The notes under the pieces were generated by a model that saw only the letters and a program-made list of their open reading frames with translations, was not told the DNA's origin and ran no database searches. From the UHGV virus genome UHGV-0206544: DNA of 45,414 bases. One strand, 5' to 3'. Positions within the stretch are counted from its first letter, which is position 1; every line of letters begins with the position of its first letter. Both the position numbers and the translations under genes were made by a program. Of the stretch, positions 7,992 through 21,097 are shown piece after piece. Source of the DNA: a virus.

Positions 7992-8771
7992 ATGAACCGT
8001 TCAGATTCTCCAGCAAAGCAACCCGTCCCTTTCGGACATAATGGACAAAGAGAGCCAATACTGGCGACCACTCCATCCGGTGATAACACAGCATCTTACG
8101 ACTTAGGCTTCCCACCAATAACAATGACATTAAAGTCAGCGGGCGGCCTACCCCCTAAAGGACAGGATATGAACCAAATCCTGTACGAGCTATCTGCACT
8201 TTCCAGATGGAGCAGCACTAACGCTATAAACAGGTACGATGCAACATTCTCCACCTCAATAGGTGGATACCCACAGGACGCATTGGTACTAGGAGATGAT
8301 GGGATCACTGTATGGAGAAGTAGTAGTAATAATAATACGAACAATCCAAACTCCGTAACAACTGGTTGGGTAAAAGTAGCAGATGATATCTCATCAATTC
8401 TCCAACTAGGAACGGCATCCAAAAGAGATGTTGGAGTAGGAGCAAACCAGATACCTGATATTAGCTACTTTACAAAAAGCACTGCCGGTGGGGCCGCAGT
8501 AATATTCACATTGCCAGGAGGAATGATAATACAGTGTGGAAATATTGGTCCGTTATCAGCCGGGGCCTCCGTTACTGTTACCTATCCAATCCCATTCCCT
8601 TTAGCTATGGGGTTTGTTATTCCCGCAGCGTCTGCATCCGTTGATTCAACCACTCCTGTTGCTCTCGCATTTGACTCTGCCTCAGTTGCTGACTCCAGAA
8701 ATACTGTAATATTTAGAAACTGTTCTACTCGCGGCAACCCTGGAACTCGATATCTTGCTATTGGATACTAA
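7992..8771 (+). CDS. tail fibre protein
   Basis: 259 aa. Conserved N-terminal anchor (GFPPITMTLKSAGGLPPKGQDMNQILYEL) followed by a divergent AT-rich C-terminal domain. Followed by a tail fibre assembly gene. Confidence 0.6.
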   Translation: MNRSDSPAKQPVPFGHNGQREPILATTPSGDNTASYDLGFPPITMTLKSAGGLPPKGQDMNQILYELSALSRWSSTNAINRYDATFSTSIGGYPQDALVLGDDGITVWRSSSNNNTNNPNSVTTGWVKVADDISSILQLGTASKRDVGVGANQIPDISYFTKSTAGGAAVIFTLPGGMIIQCGNIGPLSAGASVTVTYPIPFPLAMGFVIPAASASVDSTTPVALAFDSASVADSRNTVIFRNCSTRGNPGTRYLAIGY

Positions 8772-8774
8772 AGC

Positions 8775-9209
8775 ATGAAAAATTTCATATTCAGTGCGTT
8801 AAACAATGCGTTTTATCCACTTTCACTAAAAAGCCGTTACATAGAAGCAGGTAGTTGGCCTGATGATTGTGTAGAGGTTGATGACGAAGTCTTTCAAAAA
8901 TACACTGGAGAGCCTCCTGCAGGGAAGGTTCGTGGTGTAAAAGATGGACTCCCTTGCTGGATTGACTTGCCGCCACCAACCCAAGAAGAGCTTGAAGCTA
9001 TAAACAAACAAACACAATTCAAATTAAGAGATATTGCAGACTCTGAAATAGCATGGAGGCAGGATGCCGTTGAGTCTGACTTTGCTACAGAAAAGGAAGT
9101 GACTGAGTTATATGAATGGAAAAAATACCGCGTATTGTTGATGCGGATTGATACCAGTGCTGAGCAAACCATAGAATGGCCAACCCCTCCAGAAGCCTCT
9201 ATCCTGTAG
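8775..9209 (+). CDS. tfa: tail fibre assembly protein (Tfa family)
   Basis: 144 aa. N-terminus MKNFIFSALNNAFYP...WPDDCVEVDDEVFQ and C-terminal EAINKQ...WRQ are typical of the Tfa family. Confidence 0.65.
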   Translation: MKNFIFSALNNAFYPLSLKSRYIEAGSWPDDCVEVDDEVFQKYTGEPPAGKVRGVKDGLPCWIDLPPPTQEELEAINKQTQFKLRDIADSEIAWRQDAVESDFATEKEVTELYEWKKYRVLLMRIDTSAEQTIEWPTPPEASIL

Positions 9210-9446
9210 CTAATAGGATTAGCTCAACATGACTAGATAAGTGCGTTTTGCGCTAACGCAATGGCTATGCGTGTGACGTCGATGAATCATAAAACAGTAG
9301 CAACATGCGGCGATATTTGTTGCCTGTGCATGACTCATTGCCTATCATGAGTATGCAGTTGTAAGGTTGCAATTATTGACCACATGTCTAGGTTTTTTAA
9401 TTAAACCATAGCTATCGTCACGATGATACTGAAAACAGGAGAGAGC

Positions 9447-10100
9447 ATGAAGCTGTATGGCATTGTTGGTGCAGGTGGGTATGGAAGAGAAGTCATGCCA
9501 CTTGTACAAGAGGTAATGTTAAAATCTCATCTTTCAGCGGACACGCAATGTGTATTTGTCGTTGAGAATGCCAAAGAAAAAGTGGTTAATGGATTTCCCG
9601 TTTTATCACCAGAAGAATTTTTCGCAATTCCGGCCGATGAAAAGTATTTTAATGTGGCAATTGCAGCCAGCAGGGCAAGAGAAAGGATTTCAACTTTATT
9701 TATAGACAAAGGGATCCTCCCTTTTTCCGTAACTAGTAACCATTCAGTAATTTACAGTACATCAGAAATTGGCGAAGGAGCTATTATTAATCCCTTTGCA
9801 ATTATATCTGCAAATTCAAAAGTCGGCAGATTTTTCCATGCAAACGTATACTCATACATAGCTCACGATTGTATTATAGGGAATTACGTTACATTTGCCC
9901 CTGGTGTAAAATGCTGCGGAAATGTAGTTGTTGAGGACCACGCCTACGTTGGTGCGGGTGCAGTAATCAGACAAAATACAGCAGAACAACCAATTATCAT
10001 TGGCGCAGGAGCGGTAATAGGAATGGGAGCCATTGTCACAAAGAGCGTTCCTGCAGGAATAACTGTTGCTGGAAACCCAGCCAGACCGCTAATAAAATAA
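9447..10100 (+). CDS. hexapeptide-repeat acetyltransferase, NeuD/PglD-like family (moron)
   Basis: Start at ATG 9447 with SD AGGAG. N-terminal MKLYGIVGAGGYGREV (Rossmann-like) and C-terminal left-handed beta-helix hexapeptide repeats (IGEGAIINP...IGNYVTFAPGV...VGAGAVIRQN...IGAGAVIGMGAIV). AT-rich relative to neighbours; a TTGACC-17-AATTAA promoter candidate at 9376-9404. Confidence 0.8.
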   Translation: MKLYGIVGAGGYGREVMPLVQEVMLKSHLSADTQCVFVVENAKEKVVNGFPVLSPEEFFAIPADEKYFNVAIAASRARERISTLFIDKGILPFSVTSNHSVIYSTSEIGEGAIINPFAIISANSKVGRFFHANVYSYIAHDCIIGNYVTFAPGVKCCGNVVVEDHAYVGAGAVIRQNTAEQPIIIGAGAVIGMGAIVTKSVPAGITVAGNPARPLIK

Positions 10101-10208
10101 TCGTAGATGGCGTTAGTTTAAACCATAACTATATTGGTGTGACTATAAGAAAATATAACTGTCTTACAGTAACTTAACTTCTAACCACCAATTAGGACTT
10201 GATAGCGT

Positions 10209-10243
10209 TGACTCAAAAAATGATACTGTAATTATATACAGTA
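10209..10243 (+). promoter_or_regulatory. SOS-regulated promoter: -35 TTGACT, -10 ATTATA embedded in a perfect LexA box TACTGTAATTATATACAGTA
   Basis: CTGT-N8-ACAG palindrome at 10226-10241 with TA flanks. Sits 18 nt upstream of the humD-like start. Confidence 0.6.
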
Positions 10244-10260
10244 TCATAGAGGTGGTTATC

Positions 10261-10650
10261 ATGGGTTTCCCATCCCCAGCAGCGGACTACGTAGAGAGAA
10301 GCATTTCGCTTGACGAAAAATTTGTTGAACATCCAGCATCTACATACTTCATGAGAGCAGGGCAAACATACTGGCGAGAAGGCATCCAGAATGGTGCCTT
10401 GCTGGTCGTGGATAGCTCACTTAAGCCATGTGATGGCTCTCTGCTCGTTTGTAGGATAGATGATGAGTTAAGGATAAAGCGTTACCGCGCCCATCCAAAG
10501 CCTCATTTGGTGAATCTTGAGAACGGCAAGCGTGAAGAGATACCGGGGAAGACTGGAGACTACAATGTGTCATCACCGGTATTCGGGGTGATCACCTACA
10601 TCATCAACGATGCTCGCTCTGGTGAGTTTGATGATTGTCCGGTGATGTGA
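10261..10650 (+). CDS. humD: UmuD'-like protein (P1 HumD-like), naturally lacking the N-terminal cleavable arm
   Basis: Begins MGFPSPAADYVE, the N-terminus of processed UmuD'. It aligns along UmuD' with GQTY in place of GDSM and K retained (RIKRY vs TVKKL). SD AGAGGTGG. Confidence 0.75.
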   Translation: MGFPSPAADYVERSISLDEKFVEHPASTYFMRAGQTYWREGIQNGALLVVDSSLKPCDGSLLVCRIDDELRIKRYRAHPKPHLVNLENGKREEIPGKTGDYNVSSPVFGVITYIINDARSGEFDDCPVM

Positions 10651-10773
10651 GACAAGAATGGGACACACAAAGCTTTGCATCGGTTTGCAAGGCTTTGCAT
10701 GTTTTTAGAAGGTGGGACGTGTGAGCGCTGTTGTGATGGGGTAAGTTATTGTTATCTTAGATAGTCCTAGGAA

Positions 10774-10818
10774 CTTCTAAGCCGTCGGTCACAGGTTCGA
10801 ATCCTGTAGGGGGCGCCA
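10774..10818 (+). other. attP core: 45-nt 3' fragment of tRNA-Arg(UCU), from anticodon loop to CCA
   Basis: CTTCTAAGCCGTCGGTCACAGGTTCGAATCCTGTAGGGGGCGCCA. Anticodon loop, T-arm (ACAGG-TTCGAAT-CCTGT) and acceptor 3' strand plus CCA are present. No matching 5' half upstream. Adjacent to the integrase gene. Confidence 0.6.
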
Positions 10819-10833
10819 TTATAAATCAACGAT

Positions 10834-11997
10834 TTAACCATTTCCGCCAGCCTCCATATTTCCCTCGTGGGACATATTTGGGACATCATCGTTAAAAATC
10901 GAGTCAATTTGCTTCGCATGTTCGGTAAGGTGATTGGGCGCGAGATGAGCATATCGGCGTACCATTTCTATCGATTCCCAGCCACCCATCTCCTGAAGAA
11001 CAGACAACGGTACACCTGACTGAATAAGCCAGCTTGCCCATGTATGTCTGAGGTCGTGAAACCGGAAATCTTCGATACCTGCACGCTTACATGCAGACTT
11101 CCATGCGCGACCATCATCGACTCTCATTTTCCTGACTGCTGGAGTGACAGAACCATCAGGCCTTCTTCCTGCCTTTGTGTGTACGAACACAAATTTATGA
11201 TGATTACCTATCTGGTCACGCAGAACCTTACATGCGGTATCATTCAGCGCTACGCCAATAGCCCTGTTTGATTTGCTGTCTTCCGGGTTAACCCATGCCA
11301 CCCGGCGCTGCATGTCTATCTGTTGCCACTCCAGATTGATGATGTTCGAACGCCTTAAACCTGTTGCCAGCGCAAACTTGACGACAGACTTTAACGGCTC
11401 CGGACATTCATCAATCAGCCTTTTTGCTTCATCCTTCTCCAGCCATCTAACCCGCTTATTGCGCACTGCCGGTATCTTGATGACAGGTGCTTTCTCAAGC
11501 CATTTCCAGTCGCGTTCTGCCGCTCTCAGAATGGCTTTCATCAGTGCAAGATGTTTGGCTTTGGTAGAGGTTGTTACAGACTTAGCAACATAATCCGGGT
11601 CTGGATTTCCTTTCTTCCTTGCTGCTGCCACCTTTGCCTTCCATATCTCCAGATGACTCCGGTTATGCATCCTGCTGACTGCTGAGTAAATCCTTGCCTC
11701 AGTAATATCCTTCAGTCTCACTCCTTCAAATTGCTCAAGCCAGAATCCCATCCGGCCTTTATCTGTATCGAGCGACTTCTTATCTGATTTCTCTTCAATC
11801 CAGCGTAAACACGCCTCCTCAAAAGTCACATCAGGAAAGTCACCGAGTCTGTCTACTCGCCAGAGTTCGGCTTTTCGCTTGTCGTGCAACTCCTGCGCTT
11901 GCCGTTTGTCCGCTGTGCCAAGAGATTCCTTAATTCGCTTCCCGCCCGGGAGCGAGTACGAGGCGTACCATATTTCACCTCTGCGGAAGATGGACAT
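10834..11997 (-). CDS. int: tyrosine site-specific integrase
   Basis: 387 aa. C-terminal catalytic region with [11 protein letters not shown]...VRRYAHL (R..HxxR..Y); N-terminal arm-binding region. Adjacent to the tRNA fragment. Confidence 0.9.
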
Positions 11998-12224
11998 TTG
12001 CGATCCTCTTTATGTGCATCACCCGCGCTCACCTCCACAGTATGCAGCGGAGACTGAAGCGCCGCAATGCAGGCTTGTCGAGTAGTGAGGTAAGGGGACT
12101 TTGGTTTGGTGGGGTCTTTGCGTGTTGCCTGAAGGCGGCCTGTGCGTATCCAGTTGGTAGCGGTAGGTCTGGATATCCTGAGAAATGCACAGGCCTCATC
12201 GAGTGTGAGGCTGTGTGATTCCAT
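11853..12224 (-). CDS. xis: excisionase / AlpA-like DNA-binding protein (C-terminal extent uncertain)
   Basis: N-terminus [35 protein letters not shown] is an HTH typical of phage Xis. Immediately upstream of int and overlapping it. Confidence 0.55.
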
Positions 12225-12238
12225 GGTTACTCCGTTAA

Positions 12239-12553
12239 TTAAAGCTTCGGGAAATGCTTAGAATTCCTTTGCTTATTTTCCGCGTTGCGCTTGAGATTTC
12301 CTGCTGCCGCATACCAAACGTAGTGCCTTAAAAGCAATCCAAAGGCTGGTTTGCATTTAACACCATTAAATTCTTCGACATCACAAAAGAATGGACCGTT
12401 ACCAAGCCAAAGCCTGTATCCATCACGCTTTGCCGTTAGGGCTTCTTCGCAATGGGAATTAATGATAGGCTCCCATTCGCCGCGTTTTATTTGCTCTACA
12501 ACATTTCTTGCGTTATGTAATCTGGCGAGAAAGTCTGACAGAAAAGTAATCAT
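12239..12553 (-). CDS. hypothetical protein
   Basis: 104-aa ORF between xis and a terminator. Confidence 0.35.
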   Translation of the reverse strand: MITFLSDFLARLHNARNVVEQIKRGEWEPIINSHCEEALTAKRDGYRLWLGNGPFFCDVEEFNGVKCKPAFGLLLRHYVWYAAAGNLKRNAENKQRNSKHFPKL

Positions 12554-12561
12554 TATCTATC

Positions 12562-12586
12562 TCCAATAAAAAACCGCCATTGCGGC
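12562..12586 (-). terminator. rho-independent terminator (minus strand)
   Basis: Minus strand reads CCGCCGCAATGGCGG followed by TTTTTTATT. Confidence 0.6.
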
Positions 12587-12589
12587 GGT

Positions 12590-13177
12590 CTAGTAGATTA
12601 CGGTTACACCAGGAAGCGTTGGTAGCATGCTGTATAGCTTCTCTCTCACAATGGACTCCTGCCTATTATTCATTGCGTGAAGGTCAACGCATTCAATAAG
12701 CTGACGAACGAACTCTTTAACAGCCTCATCGCGTTTCCTTTCAGCTTCTGAGCGAATGGGGCGGAATTCTGCACGATTGTATCCAGCAGAGAACTTTTCT
12801 AGGCGGTCATTGAGATACTCATTTTCAGATTGAACAATTCCTATAACCTCACCATTGTGGACATAGACAACATCTATAACCAGCCAGCAGCCTTCAAAGT
12901 CATCTGCCTTCACTTCTACGCGACAGCCAACCGGAGGCAATCCCTCGCCATCCCATTCTGTCTTGCTGGCCGCAAGTGCGGCTTCGTACTGTTTTCTGTT
13001 TATCTTTACGTGAGCATCGTAATGCTGTCTTCTGTGGTCTTCGCACAACTCATCATGAAACCACCCAAGAGGCCTCATCATTTTGTCGTAATCCTGCCAA
13101 ATTTCCTCGACACCTTCAGGCCAACCTCCGCGACGAGGTAACTCCTGTACTAATGCTTCAATCAGTTTCACATCCAT
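12590..13177 (-). CDS. hypothetical protein
   Basis: 195-aa ORF in the early-left operon. Confidence 0.4.
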   Translation of the reverse strand: MDVKLIEALVQELPRRGGWPEGVEEIWQDYDKMMRPLGWFHDELCEDHRRQHYDAHVKINRKQYEAALAASKTEWDGEGLPPVGCRVEVKADDFEGCWLVIDVVYVHNGEVIGIVQSENEYLNDRLEKFSAGYNRAEFRPIRSEAERKRDEAVKEFVRQLIECVDLHAMNNRQESIVREKLYSMLPTLPGVTVIY

Positions 13178-13186
13178 CTCCTTATG

Positions 13187-13426
13187 CTAATTTCTTATAC
13201 AAGCGAGGCTCATCAACAGTAGCGCGCGAAGTTCGTGTTCGTGATGCACCGAGTAGTTGCCGTCATCCCAACGCACCCACGTTTTCGGATGGTCGCTATC
13301 CGGCTCAATCAGGCTCTCAACCATCCCTCTGATGCCTCCAGACTTAAGCTGCACTAACGCGCCCACAGCAAATTTAGCCATAACAAGCCCTCTGATTGAT
13401 GTGCGAGTGAAGAGATAGCCATCCAT
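13187..13426 (-). CDS. small protein, DUF2158/YodC-like
   Basis: MAKFAVGALVQLKSGG...WVRWDDG pattern. Likely start at the internal M. Confidence 0.35.
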   Translation of the reverse strand: MDGYLFTRTSIRGLVMAKFAVGALVQLKSGGIRGMVESLIEPDSDHPKTWVRWDDGNYSVHHEHELRALLLMSLACIRN

Positions 13427-13534
13427 GCAATAAGAGCCATGATGACGAGTGTCACAGGGTTAAGGTGCATAGGGACTCCGGATAAAAGAAAACCTCGACT
13501 GTGCGAGGTTTGTTAGTTGCGCCCTGCTGGGGAT

Positions 13535-13768
13535 TTAGCCATGTAAATCCCTCTTCCCACATTTCAGGAAAATCGCTGTGCTATCGTCTTCAAACCACCA
13601 GTCATGTTTGCATGAAGATTGCGCTTCACTTCTTTTCACATGAGGCAGAAGCATGCGGTAAGCCTCCAGAGCAAAATCTTCTTTCAGAGACCGCTGGCAG
13701 GTTTCCAGTTCAGCAATTCTGGCAGTCAGTGTATCCTGAGTCACCTTAGCCATTTTCCACCCCAACAA
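13535..13768 (-). CDS. hypothetical protein
   Basis: 77-aa ORF. Confidence 0.3.
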   Translation of the reverse strand: MLGWKMAKVTQDTLTARIAELETCQRSLKEDFALEAYRMLLPHVKRSEAQSSCKHDWWFEDDSTAIFLKCGKRDLHG

Positions 13769-13936
13769 TAACCATGGCGATGATAAAAAATGGTGCGCAG
13801 ATAGCAGCCAAAAACAGCAGCATCCAGATCATGAACATCGCATTCTGAAAACGGTAAAATCTAATCAATATATGGTGCGTTTTCTCAGCATCGCCAATTT
13901 GCATGCTGATTACAGGCTTATGGTTAATCCCTCCCA

Positions 13937-14509
13937 TCATTCAGCCTCCTGCTGCGGTGCTGCTGAAAAATGCTCAACACCTTTAGCCCAGATGGCTTTG
14001 ATGTTCGTCCAACTGACAGGAACTGTAATTTCAATTCTTCCGCTGCCGTCACAGGTTTCGCATTCATCATCACCAAAATATCCCTGCCATGTTTGTGAAC
14101 CAATTACCGAGCCCGCTTGTCTGCCACTGAAGTTAGCTTTTGCTGTAAGGACACCCGTTTCTGGGTTGTAATCAATGAGGTCTCTGATATCACCTACCGA
14201 CATAAGTAGGTGCTTCTTAAGCCCTTCAATCTCCTTCTCCAGTGGTTCGGTCGCCTCGCGTTTAACTTCAGCCAGGAAAGCGTCTGTCGATGGGGTTTCT
14301 GCCCATAAATCAGGCATCACGTCATCCCACTTAGCAATGTCACCGTTCAGGTGATAGCCAACAATACCGTCTGATTCGTAGTAGAGCGTTTGCACATCGC
14401 CGATTACCTGCTGCATATGCGCATTCTCCGCAGCCAGCGCCAGGCATTTCGCTTCCAGTTCTTCATAACTCGGTTTCATTTCCCACCTCTCAGCATCGCA
14501 TTCAGCCAC
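13937..14509 (-). CDS. Ead/Ea22-like protein
   Basis: N-terminus MKPSYEELEAKCLALAAEN is shared with ORF 24621..25010 ([17 protein letters not shown]). Confidence 0.45.
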   Translation of the reverse strand: MAECDAERWEMKPSYEELEAKCLALAAENAHMQQVIGDVQTLYYESDGIVGYHLNGDIAKWDDVMPDLWAETPSTDAFLAEVKREATEPLEKEIEGLKKHLLMSVGDIRDLIDYNPETGVLTAKANFSGRQAGSVIGSQTWQGYFGDDECETCDGSGRIEITVPVSWTNIKAIWAKGVEHFSAAPQQEAE

Positions 14510-14656
14510 TTGTTGTTCTGGAGTCGTGTTTTCGTATCGAAAGAGTCGCGCTTGAGTAACTCCTGCTTATCTGGCATTGGCTTGAAGCGGTGACGTGCTA
14601 CGAGTTCGTTTGGAGAAATGCCAGGGTCGTATGTGTTGCCTATCATGATGAATTCC

Positions 14657-14950
14657 TTAGTCGTCTCGTCTGTTGCCGTAGCGTCCATAACGAACAACCA
14701 TGCGCGGGTCGATGGACTCTTTGAATTTCTCTAGTGGTTTGCGGAACGGACGGATTGATGTCTGGTAGATGGCTTCGCGCTCTTCTTTTTCCGCAAGCCA
14801 GATAAGATGGCGAACTTCCTTTTCTGCTTTCGTTTCCTGTGGCATAGCCATAATCAGGTCGTAGTTCTTTCTGAAATTATCCAGCACCTCCGATACGGAA
14901 TTACCAGATAACCGGCGCGGGTCGTCCGCACCGTATAGAGGCGCTGGCAT
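14657..14950 (-). CDS. hypothetical protein
   Basis: 97-aa ORF upstream of ssb. Confidence 0.35.
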   Translation of the reverse strand: MPAPLYGADDPRRLSGNSVSEVLDNFRKNYDLIMAMPQETKAEKEVRHLIWLAEKEEREAIYQTSIRPFRKPLEKFKESIDPRMVVRYGRYGNRRDD

Positions 14951-14963
14951 TTGTTACTCCTGA

Positions 14964-15467
14964 TTAAATTGCGTGAATTGTGTGGCGAGGGAATGAGAGT
15001 GTTACTGGTGCAAATGGCACATCATCATCAAAATCCATCGGTGGCGCATTGTTGGTAGATGATGCACTCTGTTGCTGACTTCCTTGTTGTTGTGGTGCTG
15101 ACTGGCGATTACCATCCTGTTTACTGCCAAGCATTTGCATCACTCCACCAACACCAACGAGCACTTCCGTTGTGTATTTTTCAACACCGGACTGGTCTGT
15201 CCATTTTCTAGTTCGTAACTTTCCTTCCAGGTATACTTCAGAACCTTTTCTGAGATATTCACCTGCGATTTCTGCTAACTTCCCACTGACTACTACACGG
15301 TGCCATTCTGTTTGCTCTTTCTGCTCACCGGTCTGCTTGTCTCTCCATTGTTCCGATGTGGCTACGGTCATGTTGGCAAATACAGCACCAGAAGGCGCAT
15401 AGCGCACTTCCGGATCCTGACCTAATCGACCTACGATGATTACCTTGTTGACGCCTCTGCTAGCCAT
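14964..15467 (-). CDS. ssb: single-stranded DNA-binding protein
   Basis: OB-fold N-terminus ([18 protein letters not shown]), Gln/Gly-rich linker and acidic tail ...MDFDDDVPF. Confidence 0.85.
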
Positions 15468-16199
15468 TTATGCCGCCTTTTTAAGTTCACTGATACGAGT
15501 ATTCATTGCCTGTACGCACTTCTCCTGATGCTCAGGGTGTCCATTCATTAACTGCCAGTCTGACTGATAGCGTTCAATCAGATTTTTCTTCACCGTTTCC
15601 GTTAGTGCATAAGCGCAAAAGTCAGCCAATACCTTGTCGGCATCAATGGCGTCGGCGTTGACTCCCTCAGCGTTTTCGCTGCTTGTATCAGCGGGTAAAT
15701 GCTGTTCTTGGTTTCCCGCAGGAAGAGCCCACGCAGGAAGTTGAGGAGGTGACCAGTAGAAAACGCCAAGCTCTTTTGTTTTTGCGTAAATGAAGCCTTT
15801 TTGACGTTCCGCTGATACTGTTGCAAACACTTCAGTGAGGTCATACAGGTATCTTCCAATTCCCCATTGAACAGCTGCGCGCTTCATAGCTCCAGAGCGA
15901 CCGCCTTTTACCGCCTCAACCTGTGTGTTTTCTGCCGCATCCCACTTGGTGATCCATTCTCCTTCAACCTTGATGGAAATACCGCACTCAACGCCGCCAC
16001 CATTAGGGATATCGCGATACTCGTTACGCCATCCTGACTTGCCGCAAACCTCATCAAGGCGCTTCATGATTGCCCGATTGGTTACATAAGCCAGAACCTT
16101 AGCCCAGATACCGCTATTGTTTTTACCGGCCTGCTGGATGCGCCACTCAATATCATTGCTGGCAAATGGCTCATCTAATTTTTCCAAATCCATAAGCAC
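15468..16199 (-). CDS. Rad52/Sak-like single-strand annealing protein
   Basis: 243 aa. Motif AAVQWGIGRYLYDL. Immediately upstream of ssb in the recombination-module position. Confidence 0.55.
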   Translation of the reverse strand: MLMDLEKLDEPFASNDIEWRIQQAGKNNSGIWAKVLAYVTNRAIMKRLDEVCGKSGWRNEYRDIPNGGGVECGISIKVEGEWITKWDAAENTQVEAVKGGRSGAMKRAAVQWGIGRYLYDLTEVFATVSAERQKGFIYAKTKELGVFYWSPPQLPAWALPAGNQEQHLPADTSSENAEGVNADAIDADKVLADFCAYALTETVKKNLIERYQSDWQLMNGHPEHQEKCVQAMNTRISELKKAA

Positions 16200-16200
16200 C

Positions 16201-16371
16201 TCAGAACGGGCATCCGCCCAGGAAATAACGTTGATTAAGCACCTCTAAGCGCGACAGGTTGAGATACATACGCATGCGCTCTCTGTCACCCTTGTGACGC
16301 CACCACAGAGCTTGTGTCGTTGTCATGCGGCGCTGTAGCTGGCTTTCTTTCACTGTCGTTGTCGGCTGCAT
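16201..16371 (-). CDS. small hypothetical protein
   Basis: Internal ATG with SD GAAGGAGG. 56 aa. Confidence 0.3.
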   Translation of the reverse strand: MQPTTTVKESQLQRRMTTTQALWWRHKGDRERMRMYLNLSRLEVLNQRYFLGGCPF

Positions 16372-16446
16372 GGAGACCTCCTTCGCTGCCAATTAAATCT
16401 TGCATGAGACGCACAAAGGCATCTTCTGACCAGGTATCTGCAATGC

Positions 16447-16617
16447 TCACGGCTGCACCTTCTGATTCAGAAATTCAACCAGACGCTCCAGCAAGCTCTT
16501 AACGCGAGGCTGCTTGAAGTCTGCGCCGGTAATGATGTTCTGGCGTGAATGCTGGACGGATAAGATAGGGTCGAAAGGGCGAACCGATGCCGCCCCTGCA
16601 ATAGCGAACTGTTGCAT
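16447..16617 (-). CDS. cIII: cIII-like small protein (possible FtsH inhibitor), missed by the ORF track
   Basis: 56 aa MQQFAIAGAASV...KSLLERLVEFLNQKVQP with a perfect SD AAAGGAG. Resembles lambda CIII (MQYAIAG...SLLERI...LNQ). Confidence 0.45.
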   Translation of the reverse strand: MQQFAIAGAASVRPFDPILSVQHSRQNIITGADFKQPRVKSLLERLVEFLNQKVQP

Positions 16618-16687
16618 GGTGTGCTCCTTTTAAATTGATTGGCATAGCGCTGCACTCGAAATGAATGCACTGATATGCGGATATGAA

Positions 16688-16712
16688 AAAGCCGCACTCA
16701 GGCGGCTTCTGA
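16688..16712 (-). terminator. rho-independent terminator (hairpin AAGCCGC-N6-GCGGCTT with T-run on the minus strand)
   Basis: Perfect 7-bp stem overlapping the stop of gene 16698..16949. Confidence 0.45.
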
Positions 16713-16949
16713 TTTCTCGTCTTCGTAACGCTCAATAATCTCATCGCTGTATCCGTTTTCTGTTAGATAAGCGATTATTTCATCCATGTTCATGTCACCA
16801 AATGCAGCATCAAGAAGAGTTTCACGAAAGCGCTTTAGCTCATCTCCAACATTCACTGTGAAATTAATTGTTGTTCCGTCTTCTTTAACCGTGACGTCTT
16901 TCCAACTTGCTGAACCGTAGTTGTTGCAGCCGCGAATGCTTATTTCCAT
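16698..16949 (-). CDS. hypothetical protein
   Basis: Start at the internal ATG with SD GGAGGAAAG. 83 aa. Confidence 0.4.
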   Translation of the reverse strand: MEISIRGCNNYGSASWKDVTVKEDGTTINFTVNVGDELKRFRETLLDAAFGDMNMDEIIAYLTENGYSDEIIERYEDEKSEAA

Positions 16950-17100
16950 ACTTTCCTCCAGGCAAAAAGAATGCCGCCCTGACTGCTGGCGGCAAAGACA
17001 TAACAAGGGATTTCCATCTATCAGACACTATCGAATCGTCTCCGATAGTACGGTGCGGTATTACACCCAATAGCTAACTCAGAGAATTAGCTATCAGCTG

Positions 17101-17322
17101 CTATTCGCTTGGTGGTTCAGGTAATGGCATCCAGTGGGTTACAGGCCATCCACTGAATGCTTCAATAAACTCACCGCTTTCATTTTGCCAATGCTCATCT
17201 TCATCAAGATGCTCATCGTTTCGGTATATACCCATATCAACCCCACCCAAACTAACGTTGCATATGAGCACCCAGCAATCTGCATCAGGCATTCGCTCAC
17301 TACATTTAATCCACTCCATCAC
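17101..17322 (-). CDS. DUF551-like protein
   Basis: C-terminal W..MPLPEPP motif. Confidence 0.4.
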   Translation of the reverse strand: MMEWIKCSERMPDADCWVLICNVSLGGVDMGIYRNDEHLDEDEHWQNESGEFIEAFSGWPVTHWMPLPEPPSE

Positions 17323-17582
17323 TCCTCCCCCAGAGCCTTGCTGATGGCTACCATATCTTCTGCGTATTTAATATTCAGTGACAGAGTGGCTATACCAACC
17401 TGTTCTGCATTCCCGAAATCAACCATGCTAATCAGGTCACCACGACAAAATCCTGTATGTCCTGGCTCTCCGTTCTCTATAGCTACTGTCGGCAATTCGC
17501 TAAAACGGCTTGCAGGGTAGGCGTATTGCTTCCCTGTGAATTTGTTCCGAACAACTATCAATTTGTCAGTGACCATATTCAC
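17319..17582 (-). CDS. hypothetical protein
   Basis: 87 aa, ATGA-coupled to its neighbour. Confidence 0.35.
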   Translation of the reverse strand: MNMVTDKLIVVRNKFTGKQYAYPASRFSELPTVAIENGEPGHTGFCRGDLISMVDFGNAEQVGIATLSLNIKYAEDMVAISKALGEE

Positions 17583-17612
17583 CTCTGTGGCTTGCTGCCA
17601 AAAGAATGCCGA

Positions 17613-17807
17613 CTATGCGGCCTTTAGTTTCTCCAGCTCCCTGGCAATCATTGCCGTGGTTCTTATTGCCCATCTATCGACAATCTTTCCATCCTCTCTA
17701 ACAAGAGCCATTTCCTCAGGTTTAACCATGCATTCAGCATCAAGCTTGCAGCCTTTGCATTTCACATAGCGACCGCACCATTGATTAGTATCAATAGTCA
17801 TAGTCAT
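17613..17807 (-). CDS. small Cys-rich hypothetical protein
   Basis: 64 aa containing CxxC...CxxC. Confidence 0.3.
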   Translation of the reverse strand: MTMTIDTNQWCGRYVKCKGCKLDAECMVKPEEMALVREDGKIVDRWAIRTTAMIARELEKLKAA

Positions 17808-17884
17808 ATGGATAGTCCTGGTATTGGCTCATGTCATCCTGTGGATGCTCGTCAAACTCCTCAAATTCTTCTTCCATATTCACC

Positions 17885-18166
17885 TCAAATAAGTGGCTTG
17901 CTGCCTAATTTCATTTTCTGCCGTCCTGCACAAGTCACTCCCATTTCACGGGTTGGCTTGCTGTAGTACAGGAGATTAGTTTTCTGCGGTGCTTCCTGCT
18001 CTTTCTTATCGCGCAGACTTCCGAGCGAAGTGGCTCTGTCTACCCGATGCATATCGTTGGCTTTCTGTAACGCATTCTGAGAAGCTTCAGCGCGTCGCTT
18101 TGCAATCAGCTCACCACGCTTCAGATAACGCCGTGTAACGCTGTTGTGTGCGGTAAAGTTGGTCAT
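17885..18166 (-). CDS. N-like transcription antiterminator
   Basis: First gene downstream of the pL/oL candidate. N-terminal arginine-rich motif TRRYLKRGELIAKRRAEA. SD GGAGGA. A boxA-like element lies upstream. Confidence 0.45.
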   Translation of the reverse strand: MTNFTAHNSVTRRYLKRGELIAKRRAEASQNALQKANDMHRVDRATSLGSLRDKKEQEAPQKTNLLYYSKPTREMGVTCAGRQKMKLGSKPLI

Positions 18167-18371
18167 ATGTCCTCCGGTGGTTGCTTTGGTGGTGTGACGG
18201 ATGGAGTCGAACCATCTTCCATCGGTGCGATGCCGATTGCAGTACGCGCAGCGTTCCGCTACATGACTAGTATTTTCACAGTCGCCTATCTGCTAGCTCG
18301 CCGTTGAGCTTCGTCACACCCCAAAGCAACATCCTTTGGTCTCCCACAAGGGCGGGAGAAGTAACCCCATC

Positions 18372-18384
18372 AATGTTAAAGAGC
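18372..18384 (-). promoter_or_regulatory. nutL boxA-like element (GCTCTTTAACATT on the minus strand)
   Basis: Matches the boxA consensus (T/C)GCTCTTTAACAA. A candidate boxB hairpin TCTCCC-N8-GGGAGA lies just downstream. Confidence 0.4.
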
Positions 18385-18430
18385 TGAGACTCGATTCCTT
18401 GTCTCGGTGGTGCGTCCTGCTGATGGAACA

Positions 18431-18496
18431 AACAATAGCACTGAGTATTGTTAATAGCAATGCGTATTGAATCTAATTAATAGCAAATGCTATTAA
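18431..18496 (-). promoter_or_regulatory. oL/pL region: repressor operator repeats TTAATAGCAATGC and TTAATAGCA-AA-TGCTATTAA, with a pL candidate (-35 TTGCTA, -10 TATTGT on minus)
   Basis: Inverted-repeat half-sites TAATAGCA. The same motif recurs at oR (21141-21179). Confidence 0.5.
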
Positions 18497-18751
18497 ACAG
18501 TTGATAGCTAAATGAATTTAGTTTTTAAGAATTTGTATGAGGTGAGGATGTGAGCGAAAAATGAGCGAATTTTTGGTATGAGAGGATTAGCAATGCCGCA
18601 GTAACGCTATCAGAAGATGTGTCTGATTGTGGGTGGCGTTGTTTTTTTATGGTGACTGACGGGATTCGTACGGAATTAGAAATATGGACAGGGGGGGGTG
18701 ATGAAGACCGGTTACATTGTATTGAGCTTGCCGTTACGCCGATGGAAGGGT

Positions 18752-18780
18752 GTGCAAAAGAAAACCCGGAATGACCCGGG
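18752..18780 (-). terminator. rho-independent terminator ending the cI-cassette transcript (tImm-like)
   Basis: Minus strand reads CCCGG-GTCATT-CCGGG followed by TTTTCTTTTGC, 16 nt after the lipoprotein stop. Confidence 0.55.
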
Positions 18781-18795
18781 CATCTATTTGTTTTG

Positions 18796-19176
18796 TTAAT
18801 CAGCCCAACCTGATTTTGTGTTGATAGTTGACTCGGCCATGGTGTACTTCTGCACCTTGTCGTCTTTAAAGAGAATGGTCAGCTCTTTTTTGGTGCCGTT
18901 TGTTCCGTTATGGAACAGACCATAAAAAGGGATAAAGGAAGTGCCGTTAACTTTAACTTTGGCGAAGGCATACTTCCAGATTTCGTTACCGCCATCAGTG
19001 TAAGAAACAGCGTCAGGAGATCCGAACACTGACTTCACTTCAGCTTTGGTGGTTTTCCCCTCCTGGATTTTCGACTGAACGCTTGTTTCAGTCTCGTTTT
19101 TCAGTTGCTGATTTCCTGAAGATGCACATCCTGCCAAGGTTACTGTCAAAGCGACTGCCAGAGCTATTTTTTTCAT
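18796..19176 (-). CDS. outer-membrane lipoprotein with BamE/SmpA-OmlA-like domain
   Basis: Start at MKKIALAVALTVTLAGC (lipobox LAGC). Motif KTTKAEVKSVFGSPDAVSYTDGGNEIWKY resembles the SmpA_OmlA fold signature. Confidence 0.55.
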   Translation of the reverse strand: MKKIALAVALTVTLAGCASSGNQQLKNETETSVQSKIQEGKTTKAEVKSVFGSPDAVSYTDGGNEIWKYAFAKVKVNGTSFIPFYGLFHNGTNGTKKELTILFKDDKVQKYTMAESTINTKSGWAD

Positions 19177-19267
19177 TTCTAAGGTTCCATTGATTGCAAT
19201 CGGAAGCATCTTAACATTGTGTTTTGCACTGATAAAGAAAACCCGGCTTGGAGGCCGGGTTAGGGAA

Positions 19268-20242
19268 TTATTTGTTAACTTTAGCTAGCGCTGCTTCATA
19301 CGTTTCTTTTTCTTCAAACAGTTCAGACACTGCAAGTACCTTACCTATTTGTTGTCTTAGTGCTCTAACGCCAACCTCTTGTAAGAACTGATGGATTTTA
19401 TCTCCACGCTTCCCGTTTTCATCTCTGCTTTTTTTAGCAAGATCAAGTATCACGCCCTGACTTTTCGCCAATGGTGTGTAAATCTGCTCTATCGTTAATT
19501 TGCTGAAAAGGAAAGGGCGTCCTCTTTCTGGTTTGTTGAGTTGGTATATTTTGTACCATGCCTCATACAACTCATCTGGGAACTCTTTTTCATATTGTCT
19601 TGCCTCTTCCCGTACGTAGGCTTTGAAGGAATCAATAACTTCCTGTACTTCAGGCCTGTATCCTGCAATCGCATAACCAAGCCCCTTGAGCCCAGCTTTC
19701 ATTGATGCGGTAACAAGTCTTTGAGCAAGACTGGCAGATTTTGATCTTGAAGGTGGCAGAGCGCCAGCTCGGTCAGCATTAATCATTGCTGTAGCTATAT
19801 CACCGATAAGGGCAATATCGTAACCGTGCGCCTCGTCAGCCAGTGGATTTGGTGCTGAGTTTGGGACCGGACTTCGCCATTGAAAAATAAGCGGTTTTTG
19901 GAATTTTTCCAGCAGTAATGGATCAACAAAATCTGCCATATAATTTGTGTTTAGAAAACGGTCTACATCCCTGCCATGCTCACCGATTCCTAGTAATTTA
20001 GCTAGACCTGTTTTACTAACTACAACCGTTTTGTCATTATCATCAAGTACGTAACATTCTGCATCAATGCCGAAATCATCAACGAAGTTGCCCTTTCTGA
20101 TCGCTCTTAGTGGCTTACCTTCCCAGCGTTTTGCCGCTGCTTTTTTAGCAATCTCGGTACGCTGTTCTTTAGTAAGTGATTTTGCTCGAGCTACTCCACC
20201 TTTCGCCTTTCCGGTAGGTTTTATGTTCTCTTCATTAGACAT
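19268..20242 (-). CDS. P63C-domain-like protein in the immunity region (start alternatively at 20275)
   Basis: 324 aa from MSNEENIKPTGKAKGGVARAKSLTKEQRTEIAKKAAAKRW. AT-rich. Located between cI and oL. Confidence 0.45.
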   Translation of the reverse strand: MSNEENIKPTGKAKGGVARAKSLTKEQRTEIAKKAAAKRWEGKPLRAIRKGNFVDDFGIDAECYVLDDNDKTVVVSKTGLAKLLGIGEHGRDVDRFLNTNYMADFVDPLLLEKFQKPLIFQWRSPVPNSAPNPLADEAHGYDIALIGDIATAMINADRAGALPPSRSKSASLAQRLVTASMKAGLKGLGYAIAGYRPEVQEVIDSFKAYVREEARQYEKEFPDELYEAWYKIYQLNKPERGRPFLFSKLTIEQIYTPLAKSQGVILDLAKKSRDENGKRGDKIHQFLQEVGVRALRQQIGKVLAVSELFEEKETYEAALAKVNK

Positions 20243-20351
20243 ATGCAAGCACCATGTTGTGAAATGTGCTTGCATTTAATCACTGTATAAATAAACAAGC
20301 AAGCATTATTAATTAAAATATGCATGCAATTGATAATAAAAAAGGCCGCTT

Positions 20352-20378
20352 CCATGCGACCTCTTATCACCAATCCCA
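20352..20378 (-). terminator. possible terminator/attenuator between cI and the downstream cassette
   Basis: Minus strand reads GGTCGC-ATGGAA-GCGGCC followed by TTTTTTATT. The stem contains one G.U pair. Confidence 0.35.
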
Positions 20379-20392
20379 CCTAGGTCGGTATA

Positions 20393-21097
20393 TTAACCAT
20401 GCTTTCTGTATGTCTGTGGCATGCTACCAATAACCTTCCCGAAAACAAATATTCGGTTCATTTCATCCCCTTCTATCGGGTCCCAAGCTGTATAATTCTT
20501 GTTATCAGATATGACTAGGAGCTTGTCTTTTACTTTTTGCAGACGTTTAACATGGGATGTCTCATCGTAGATGAATGCATATATCCCGTCCCCATCAAAA
20601 TGCTGAACACTTATATCGACGAATAGCAAGTCGCCTGGCTCAATCGTGCCAGACATACTGTCTCCTCGAACGTTGATGATCCTAATCTGCTCTGCTTTTC
20701 TACCATTGAACATCCGGCGGGCATCTTCAACTGAATATTCCACGGATTTTAGAACCTCTACAAACTCGCTATTGATTGCGCCAGGTCCTGCACTCACACA
20801 AAAATCAAGCGCCTCAATGCGGAAAGTGTCGGAAGATACACCCTCTATTTTTTGCTTAGGGAGATATGGCGTCTGTCCATCATCTCGCATGGGGCCAGCA
20901 CCTGTAGAAAGCCACTCTGTTCTTACTCCAAGAGCGTTAGCAATTTCAACAATCTTAGTCGATCCGCGAGCATTGCCACTAGTAAGCCTCCAGATAGTTG
21001 GCTGCGCAACTCCAGACGCCTTAGCCAGAGCGCCCTGTGACATTCCTGATAATTCCATCGCCTGATTCAGGCGTTCTGCAAGGGTTTCTTTTTTCAT
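20393..21097 (-). CDS. cI: CI-like prophage repressor (HTH_XRE + S24 LexA-like peptidase)
   Basis: N-terminal HTH (LAERLNQAMELSGMSQGALAKASGVAQPTIWRL). C-terminal S24 domain with GDSM nucleophile and VKRL lysine. Confidence 0.85.
   Translation of the reverse strand: MKKETLAERLNQAMELSGMSQGALAKASGVAQPTIWRLTSGNARGSTKIVEIANALGVRTEWLSTGAGPMRDDGQTPYLPKQKIEGVSSDTFRIEALDFCVSAGPGAINSEFVEVLKSVEYSVEDARRMFNGRKAEQIRIINVRGDSMSGTIEPGDLLFVDISVQHFDGDGIYAFIYDETSHVKRLQKVKDKLLVISDNKNYTAWDPIEGDEMNRIFVFGKVIGSMPQTYRKHG

Follow-up and report, generated by a model that had tools for sequence, protein, structure and literature searches.

A predicted sugar N-acyltransferase gene as candidate lysogenic-conversion cargo behind the tail fibre genes of a temperate phage

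Introduction

Phages are known to convert the serotype of their host by adding glucose or an O-acetyl group to the assembled O-unit, or by changing its polymerisation. The virus genome UHGV-0206544, a stretch of 45,414 nucleotides that was analysed over its whole length and is called the window here, raises the question of what a soluble sugar acetyltransferase would do in a temperate phage. The gene follows the tail fibre assembly gene, and an initial annotation, made from the DNA alone, had described positions 9210-10100 as a moron of the NeuD/PglD hexapeptide acetyltransferase family. The answer that we favour, with moderate confidence, is that the gene encodes a soluble, cytoplasmic and probably trimeric left-handed beta-helix N-acyltransferase of the WeeI/PerB/VioB kind, which depends on acyl-CoA and serves as lysogenic-conversion cargo by acting on a nucleoside diphosphate (NDP)-4-amino sugar of the host.

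Results

The protein belongs to a family of nucleotide-sugar N-acetyltransferases

The protein matched the NCBIfam model TIGR03570 (NeuD/PglB/VioB) with 167.6 bits (cut-off 160.8), residues 6-213 aligning to model positions 4-202 of 202. Pfam recognised Hexapep (PF00132, 52.8 bits) and PglD_N (PF17836, 25.7 bits, cut-off 23.4). A glycine-rich motif, G8-A-G-G-Y-G-R14 (GAGGYGRE), stands at the N-terminus and is followed by a C-terminal left-handed beta-helix. This confirms a two-domain layout as well as the family and the GAGGxGR motif named in the initial annotation. A sequence search of the Protein Data Bank (PDB) returned WeeI of Acinetobacter baumannii (4m9c, E = 8e-72) and Pcryo_0637 of Psychrobacter cryohalolentis (7l7y/7l7z, E = 8e-60), followed by PglB-ATD (4m98, E = 3.5e-22), VioB (7txp, E = 9e-18) and, at about 8e-12, PglD and Caulobacter PerB. 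The AlphaFold (AF2) model had a predicted local distance difference test score (pLDDT) of 83.3 and a predicted template modelling score (pTM) of 0.80. Foldseek placed it closest to WeeI (template modelling score, TM, 0.82), then to Pcryo_0637 (0.81), PglB-ATD (0.75), VioB (0.74) and PerB (0.71). The structure search for the closest characterised member, which had been suggested at the outset, thus led to the same relatives as the sequence search, in slightly changed order. Identity to the phage protein was 56% for WbdR/PerB of Escherichia coli O157, 53% for the acyltransferase of E. coli O49, 52% for WeeI, 45% for Pcryo_0637 and 30% for VioB. The PHROGs database gave only weak matches, to families of unknown function.

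The whole length of the protein aligns to soluble crystal structures, as expected for the soluble beta-helix enzyme that had been proposed, and its sole hydrophobic stretch falls inside the beta-helix. Pfam found no match in it to the membrane acyltransferase domain of the Oac type (Acyl_transf_3 or AT3, PF01757), and the earlier view that it represents a class distinct from the membrane Oac enzymes therefore holds. The solved full-length relatives (WeeI, Pcryo_0637, PglB-ATD, PglD, PerB and VioB) all N-acetylate the C4 amine of NDP-4-amino-4,6-dideoxy sugars. We therefore expect N-acylation of a cytoplasmic nucleotide-sugar and not O-acetylation, and the phage enzyme is predicted to N-acetylate a nucleotide-linked 4-amino sugar. 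The phage's own tail fibre, another candidate substrate of the initial annotation, is poorly supported.

In Pcryo_0637 the active site comprises the catalytic His142, Gln178, the ribose-binding pair Asp40-Asp41, Ser11 at the phosphate and Gly179, the backbone of which contacts the sugar (PMC8040287). His142 corresponds to His140 of the phage protein (in the motif YIAHDC; His125 in PglD), the sugar-contacting Gln178 is conserved, and all family-invariant residues are intact. The phage enzyme differs from Pcryo_0637 in that Asp40-Asp41 is replaced by Val39-Glu40, Ser11 by Gly10 and Gly179 by Asn. A Val-acid pattern is common to clade members in a deoxythymidine diphosphate (dTDP)-sugar context, such as the O49 enzyme (F-I-V-D-D) and that of P. 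salomonii (F-V-V-E-G); WeeI, Pcryo_0637 and WbdR, which use uridine or guanosine diphosphate (UDP or GDP) sugars, carry Asp-Asp. The Val-Glu motif is only suggestive of a dTDP-sugar, and the fact that the LDN motif of VioB is placed differently by HMMER and by MAFFT weakens an assignment of the nucleotide from this motif.

The gene lies in a variable slot together with the tip of the tail fibre

The open reading frame (ORF) list contained a frame of 225 amino acids at 9423-10100 on the plus strand. We set the start at ATG 9447, because a ribosome-binding site (AGGAG, 9437-9441) precedes it and all homologues begin at the equivalent Met; the likely gene thus covers 9447-10100 (+) and encodes 217 amino acids. 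Consequently, positions 9210-9446 (GC content 40.9%) are intergenic, and the feature start of 9210 given initially marks the end of the tail fibre assembly gene and not the start of coding. The GC content of the gene is 41.1%, with 30% at third codon positions, compared to 47.8% for the whole window (29th lowest among 896 windows of equal size), in line with the low GC noted before. Nucleotide homology to four relatives (L003, L004, L005 and L018) is limited to the coding sequence, with its onset at 9429, which rules out upstream regulatory DNA shared among these homologues. Tandem Repeats Finder detected no tandem or heptanucleotide repeats in 9100-10300. There is therefore no evidence for phase variation, and the reported lack of neuO-type heptanucleotide repeats is correct. 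A scan of 9000-11000 against Rfam gave sub-threshold chance matches only.

The gene is preceded by a tail fibre gene (7992-8771, +; 259 amino acids; Pfam Gp53-like_C, PHROG tail fibre; variable from about 8380 on) and by the tail fibre assembly (chaperone) gene (8775-9209, +; 144 amino acids; Pfam Caudo_TAP with 106.5 bits, PHROG 188). Three sibling prophages, with baseplate J proteins 97-98% identical, were compared at this place. In Citrobacter amalonaticus (L160) the order is fibre, tail fibre assembly gene and humD, and the slot is empty. In a Citrobacter sp. (L161, baseplate J 97%) the genes gtrC, gtrB and gtrA lie on the minus strand between the tail fibre assembly gene and humD. The third sibling (L162) has the fibre followed by an ORF of 52 amino acids, a protein of 431 amino acids (13257-14552, zero Pfam domains) and humD. 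DNA homology between the window and its siblings ends inside the fibre gene, at 8272 for L160 and at 8380 for L161, and restarts at the LexA box at 10223. From these break-points, the acetyltransferase is part of a swappable block that also holds the receptor-binding end of the fibre and the chaperone. The C-terminal part of the fibre (8272-8771) and the whole chaperone gene, which lies within the variable block, differ among the sisters, whose fibres have 259, 300, 255 and 347 amino acids. The cargo next to the fibre therefore varies in step with receptor-binding specificity. The gtrABC genes in the identical place of a sister are the strongest positional evidence that the window gene would be conversion cargo. 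A slot that is empty or filled by gtrABC or another gene in the siblings, together with an atypical GC content (41% vs 48%), bears out the description of the gene as a moron in a lysogenic-conversion slot.

Compared to the homologue in L003, which is 78-79% identical, the rate of nonsynonymous substitution (dN) was 0.135 and the synonymous rate (dS) was saturated. Since dN is far below the saturated dS, the gene is maintained by selection, and this selection is purifying.

Related genes recur in unrelated prophages

A total of 2988 homologues were found, and the genomic contexts of the closest ones were read. One with 64% identity (P0003, L004) follows the tail fibre assembly gene of a P2-like prophage and is itself followed by a MaoC dehydratase gene, recA and the integrase. 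A MaoC partner is also present beside a homologue with 61% identity (P0005). Another, with 58% identity (P0009), comes from an E. coli prophage that has a Mu-like baseplate; here too the gene stands behind the tail fibre assembly gene and is accompanied by MaoC. In the IMG/VR collection, one clade member (L119) has lysis genes on one side and an Acyl_transf_3 gene on the other, another (L120) is flanked by endolysin and integrase on a contig with an additional AT3-SGNH gene, and others are neighbours of tail fibres (L121 and L047, the latter with MaoC). Clade relatives thus recur behind tail fibre genes in unrelated prophages, often with MaoC. On chromosomes, a Pseudomonas member lies directly beside a DegT aminotransferase gene in an O-antigen cluster with rmlBDAC and wzm/wzt, and DegT-type aminotransferases are neighbours at many further chromosomal loci. 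The closest homologues come from prophage cargo, O-antigen clusters and flagellin glycosylation islands; they are not the housekeeping enzymes that the initial annotation had considered possible. In a rough neighbour-joining tree the window protein grouped with prophage and enterobacterial members near WbdR, apart from the WeeI/Pcryo_0637 clade.

Prophage homologues in E. coli coincide with vioA

Among 5426 complete E. coli genomes, six carried the pair of prophage acyltransferase and MaoC (D9, D4, S3, O39:NM F8704-2, OY754416 and OY754389), and the genes flanking it differ between D9 and the O39 strain. The acyltransferase follows the tail fibre assembly gene by about 235 nucleotides, compared to 237 nucleotides in the window. 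A megablast search with the vioA region of O39 found vioA in 38 of the 5426 genomes, a lower bound, since megablast misses divergent alleles such as the vioA of O49. All six carriers of the pair were among these 38. Chance falls far short of explaining this overlap, even if a few per cent of genomes had vioA and the carriers stood for only two or three independent lineages.

The O39 cluster of the carrier F8704-2 (L111) contains vioA and an acyltransferase gene of its own (193 amino acids), as does the true O116 cluster (cq9, L165; 188 amino acids). The remaining five carriers have a common cluster without N-acyltransferase, galF-rfbB-rfbA-wzx-vioA-GT-wzy-GT-GT2-glf-GT-gnd, in which GT denotes a glycosyltransferase. 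Exactly 8 of the 5426 genomes have such a vioA cluster (with O116-family wzx) and no N-acyltransferase in it, and five of these eight carry the prophage pair. The eight include NZ_CP010228 (L113), NZ_CP010152 (L112) and NZ_CP010177 (L164). In the pair carrier O39:NM F8704-2, vioA (L111, 16979-18090) is annotated as frameshifted, which could be a sequencing error or a true pseudogene; 14 other genomes share this cluster at 99.6-99.9% identity.

The O49 cluster of E. coli has the order rfbBDAC-vioA-acyltransferase-MaoC, with a divergent version of the pair directly after vioA. The O49 antigen is listed as containing 4,6-dideoxy-4-[(S)-3-hydroxybutanoylamino]-D-glucose (Perepelov et al., 2008, as listed in PMC7685785). 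In A. baumannii, acetyl transfer falls to one member of this family, QhbA (identical to WeeI), and 3-hydroxybutanoyl transfer to another, QhbC (PMC9676051). Judged by these gene clusters, acyltransferase and MaoC together are a predicted module for the N-3-hydroxybutanoylation of viosamine, the prophage version of which tracks hosts that would make dTDP-viosamine.

In the O39 prophage, MaoC is followed by a protein of 517 amino acids annotated as 'sigma-70 family RNA polymerase sigma factor' (L108, 11007-12560), in which we found zero Pfam domains; in D9 (L018, 11906-13459) it is split into two ORFs. This protein is unlike the FliA of Buttiauxella, which rules out that the E. coli prophage cargo was taken from a flagellar acyltransferase-MaoC-fliA island.

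Observations against the proposed conversion cargo and alternative explanations

Several observations weigh against a role as conversion cargo that modifies a host amino sugar. Three of the eight E. coli genomes with an acyltransferase-less cluster (H14, S21 and ET565) lack the prophage pair, which is thus not obligatory. The evidence from E. coli concerns a homologue that is 58% identical and, unlike the window gene, paired with MaoC. The co-occurrence with vioA could reflect host range through receptor use, yet it would still tie the gene to viosamine O-antigens. Near the putative sugar site, the window protein and its relative in L003 show KCCGN and [RK]QN, where other relatives have KCNGN and KQG; the specificity, and with it the exact acceptor, may therefore differ. 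The exact protein was found in one metagenome sample only. Finally, expression has to be considered. The promoter-like sequence claimed initially is indeed present, at 9320-9348, yet this sigma-70-like site (TTGCCT-17-TATCAT) is weak, with 9 of 12 matches. The scan found no terminator-like site between the tail fibre assembly gene and the acetyltransferase gene, which is thus not set apart from the late tail operon, or directly after the latter. Promoter-like sites in the region numbered 10, compared to 5.6 +/- 2.3 in shuffled sequences. By this arrangement the gene could be mainly a late gene.

The same observations bring up the alternative that survives best, namely that the gene is a passenger, captured together with the C-terminus of the fibre and the chaperone, expressed by late read-through only and either neutral or used in the lytic cycle. 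The missing terminator, the weak promoter-like site, the location inside the swapped block and the single sample would all fit. We nevertheless regard a mere passenger as unlikely. Purifying selection on the gene is strong, every family-invariant residue is intact, homologues arrived independently behind the tail fibre genes of three or more unrelated types of tail, and the E. coli homologue is tied non-randomly to the vioA of its hosts.

A second possibility is that the enzyme tailors a flagellin glycan, such that N-acylation of a flagellin amino-sugar would change flagellar antigenicity or the adsorption of flagellotropic phages. The closest homologue of all (P0002, L003; 78-79% identity) lies directly downstream of fliE on a C. 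amalonaticus-like chromosome, the FliE of which matches its C. amalonaticus counterpart at 91-92% identity. A clade member of Buttiauxella agrestis is part of a flagellin glycosylation island with the order fliC, methyltransferase/TPR/GT41, DegT, acyltransferase, MaoC and fliA, and the neighbour-joining tree pairs the E. coli prophage enzyme with the Buttiauxella enzyme. However, the L003 gene is outside the flagellar operon, and its 2-kb contig has neither a glycosyltransferase nor a DegT gene. Moreover, the slot of a sister prophage holds gtrABC, which is an O-antigen system, and the E. coli homologue tracks the vioA of the rfb cluster. A flagellar role is thus quite unlikely. Beside the homologue, L003 also encodes a protein of 292 amino acids (1259-2137, -), the C-terminus of which appears hexapeptide-like by eye and which has zero Pfam matches.

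The enzyme might also act, independently of serotype, on a precursor that all enterobacteria possess, either dTDP-Fuc4N of the enterobacterial common antigen (ECA) or UDP-Ara4N of lipid A modification. Both are products of DegT-family aminotransferases, and a lone mobile transferase with a universal substrate would not be restricted in its hosts. With such a substrate, however, a restriction of the E. coli prophage homologue to vioA-positive genomes would be unexpected. In addition, ECA has its own acetyltransferase, WecD. The C4 amine acetylated by the characterised relatives is, to our knowledge, equatorial in every case (gluco or manno), whereas Fuc4N has the galacto configuration. A universal precursor is therefore very unlikely as the substrate. 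Hardly credible, lastly, is an O-acetyltransferase for sialic acid or a polysialic-acid capsule, a substrate that had been proposed initially: the NCBIfam name includes NeuD, and NeuO of prophage CUS-3 is likewise a prophage-borne hexapeptide-repeat enzyme, yet NeuO (3jqy) matched with only E = 1e-4 over the C-terminal repeats (residues 159-214), the strong matches are all N-acetyltransferases of 4-amino sugars, the 5' heptad repeats are lacking, and the homologues adjoin DegT aminotransferases and not neu genes.

Neighbouring genes, attachment site and host

The acetyltransferase gene had been placed between the tail fibre assembly gene and attP. This order is correct, but the gene is not adjacent to attP, as humD, overlooked at first, intervenes. 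A perfect LexA (SOS) box, TACTGTAATTATATACAGTA (10224-10243; named by the known CTGT-N8-ACAG consensus), overlaps promoter-like hexamers of humD (10261-10650, +), which encodes a UmuD'-like translesion subunit with S24 peptidase fold (129 amino acids; NCBIfam HumD 219.1 bits, Pfam Peptidase_S24, PHROG 811). By these features humD is predicted to be a LexA-controlled, SOS-regulated accessory gene of translesion synthesis. It is kept in all sibling prophages, as a second cargo gene that is fixed beside att. The terminator scan reported a terminator-like hairpin with a T run after humD (10668-10707, +). The attP core (10774-10818, +) consists of the 3' 45 nucleotides of tRNA-Arg(UCU), from the anticodon loop to CCA, and resembles the argU-type attP of phage epsilon34; ARAGORN found no complete tRNA at attP. 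Identity between the window and its integrated form (L001) stops at 10820. A tyrosine integrase of 387 amino acids is encoded by the ORF at 10834-11997 (-).

The window is the complete genome of a temperate phage with P22-like (lambdoid) early genes and an E217-like contractile tail, i.e., a myovirus. The single sample with the exact protein contains it on the 45.4-kb contig and on a 62-kb scaffold (L001), in which the prophage stands in tandem with a P4-like element (11539-20654; Arm-DNA-bind_3 integrase, AlpA, primase and DUF927) at the same tRNA-Arg site. The baseplate J protein shares 96-97% identity with those of C. amalonaticus, C. farmeri and Citrobacter sp.; its identity to proteins of E. 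coli prophages is lower, at 88-89%. This makes a host from the amalonaticus group of Citrobacter very probable. A scan of GTDB species representatives returned nothing nearer than 59% identity (Serratia nevei). Among the 5426 E. coli genomes, neither a DNA search with the acetyltransferase gene nor a megablast of the baseplate genes gave a match. The sole full-length protein relative among GenBank phages was found in Acinetobacter phage TPWB-05 (49% identity, in an uninformative context). PADLOC detected zero defence systems.

Discussion

How could a single soluble enzyme change the surface of a lysogen? Homologues of DegT aminotransferases, Rml proteins, dehydratases, glycosyltransferases, MaoC and AT3 were found nowhere in the window, and the amino-sugar must therefore come from the host. 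We propose that the lysogen produces the enzyme; read-through of the tail operon may provide it late in infection as well. Its substrate would be an NDP-4-amino-4,6-dideoxyhexose supplied by a dehydratase and a DegT-type aminotransferase of the host, most likely an intermediate of the dTDP-viosamine type or else GDP-perosamine. The acyl group would be transferred from acyl-CoA to the C4 amine, with His140 as the base. An acetyl group is the likelier one, because the window gene and its closest relative have no MaoC partner. Through host glycosyltransferases, the sugar so changed would enter the O-antigen or, with lower probability, a flagellin glycan or another polymer. Changed phage adsorption and a changed serotype may be the outcome, that is, lysogenic conversion or superinfection exclusion at the level of a precursor. 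We infer the acceptor sugar, the acetyl group, the expression in the lysogen and the surface phenotype. Nevertheless, the surface polysaccharide of the host is probably altered by this precursor-level route.

Enzymologically, the protein adds one more member to a well-studied family, and the novelty lies in its role as phage cargo. WeeI (QhbA) and Pcryo_0637, both UDP-2-acetamido-4-amino-2,4,6-trideoxy-D-glucose N-acetyltransferases, have the fold of PglD_N plus beta-helix in common with the phage enzyme, as well as the catalytic His and the sugar-contacting Gln. They differ by their separate clade in the tree and by Asp-Asp and Ser11 in place of Val-Glu and Gly. Furthermore, WeeI-type genes lie in capsule or O-antigen loci together with an aminotransferase of their own, whereas the phage gene stands alone. 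The hallmarks of the enzymes that make UDP-N,N'-diacetylbacillosamine (WeeI/QhbA, PglD, Pcryo_0637) are absent: the phage protein has no Asp-Asp/Ser, and its gene is linked neither to a PglF-type dehydratase nor to a PglE-type aminotransferase. Among enterobacterial enzymes whose role is known or inferred from structure, the nearest are PerB/WbdR of E. coli O157, a GDP-perosamine N-acetyltransferase, and the O49 acyltransferase. They share the broad clade and the reaction type, on an NDP-4-amino-4,6-dideoxyhexose, with the phage enzyme, yet their genes are chromosomal and lie beside an aminotransferase gene. The O49-type enzyme is in addition paired with MaoC and presumably uses 3-hydroxybutanoyl-CoA, unlike the enzyme of the window. 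Closest in setting is the prophage pair of E. coli, which belongs to the same clade and is likewise cargo between tail genes and att; it differs by its Mu-like tail module, the MaoC partner, further cargo and hosts with a vioA cluster.

The genomic logic is that of the known conversion modules, namely gtrABC (P22, SfV, SfII and others), Oac/Acyl_transf_3 (Sf6, D3, the A. baumannii prophage genes Atr29/30) and NeuO (CUS-3), all of which are AT-rich cargo between tail fibre genes and att/int. Indeed, clade enzymes stand beside Acyl_transf_3 genes on the IMG/VR contigs. The known modules, however, modify a glycan that is already complete or bound to a lipid, at the membrane or past it, and NeuO acts on the polymer. 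The phage enzyme is predicted to be soluble, cytoplasmic and precursor-acting, and its product would be an N-acyl (amide) and not an O-acyl or glucosyl derivative. NeuO belongs to a phase-variable type of polysialic acid O-acetyltransferase, to which the phage gene, having no heptad repeats, is only weakly similar. In the literature searched we found no description of a phage-borne N-acetyltransferase of the PglD/WeeI/VioB type, and a review of E. coli O-antigens names gtr genes alone as prophage contributions.

More tentatively, soluble NDP-4-amino-sugar N-acyltransferases, with or without a MaoC hydratase, may serve temperate phages of Enterobacterales as an undescribed kind of serotype-conversion cargo that re-tailors or completes O-antigen synthesis at the nucleotide-sugar stage. 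The acyltransferase-less vioA cluster of E. coli would then depend on, or be converted by, acylation from a prophage, and the Citrobacter phage would represent an acetyl-only version. For the window gene, we infer this from homology, position and co-occurrence. E. coli offers a concrete test case in the eight genomes with a vioA cluster without N-acyltransferase, five of them with the prophage pair. If the proposal is true, an N-acyl change on a precursor would be a different route to serotype conversion, and the rfb cluster by itself would not always reveal the chemistry of an O-antigen. This would be relevant for sequence-based serotyping, the design of glycoconjugate vaccines and the prediction of phage host range.

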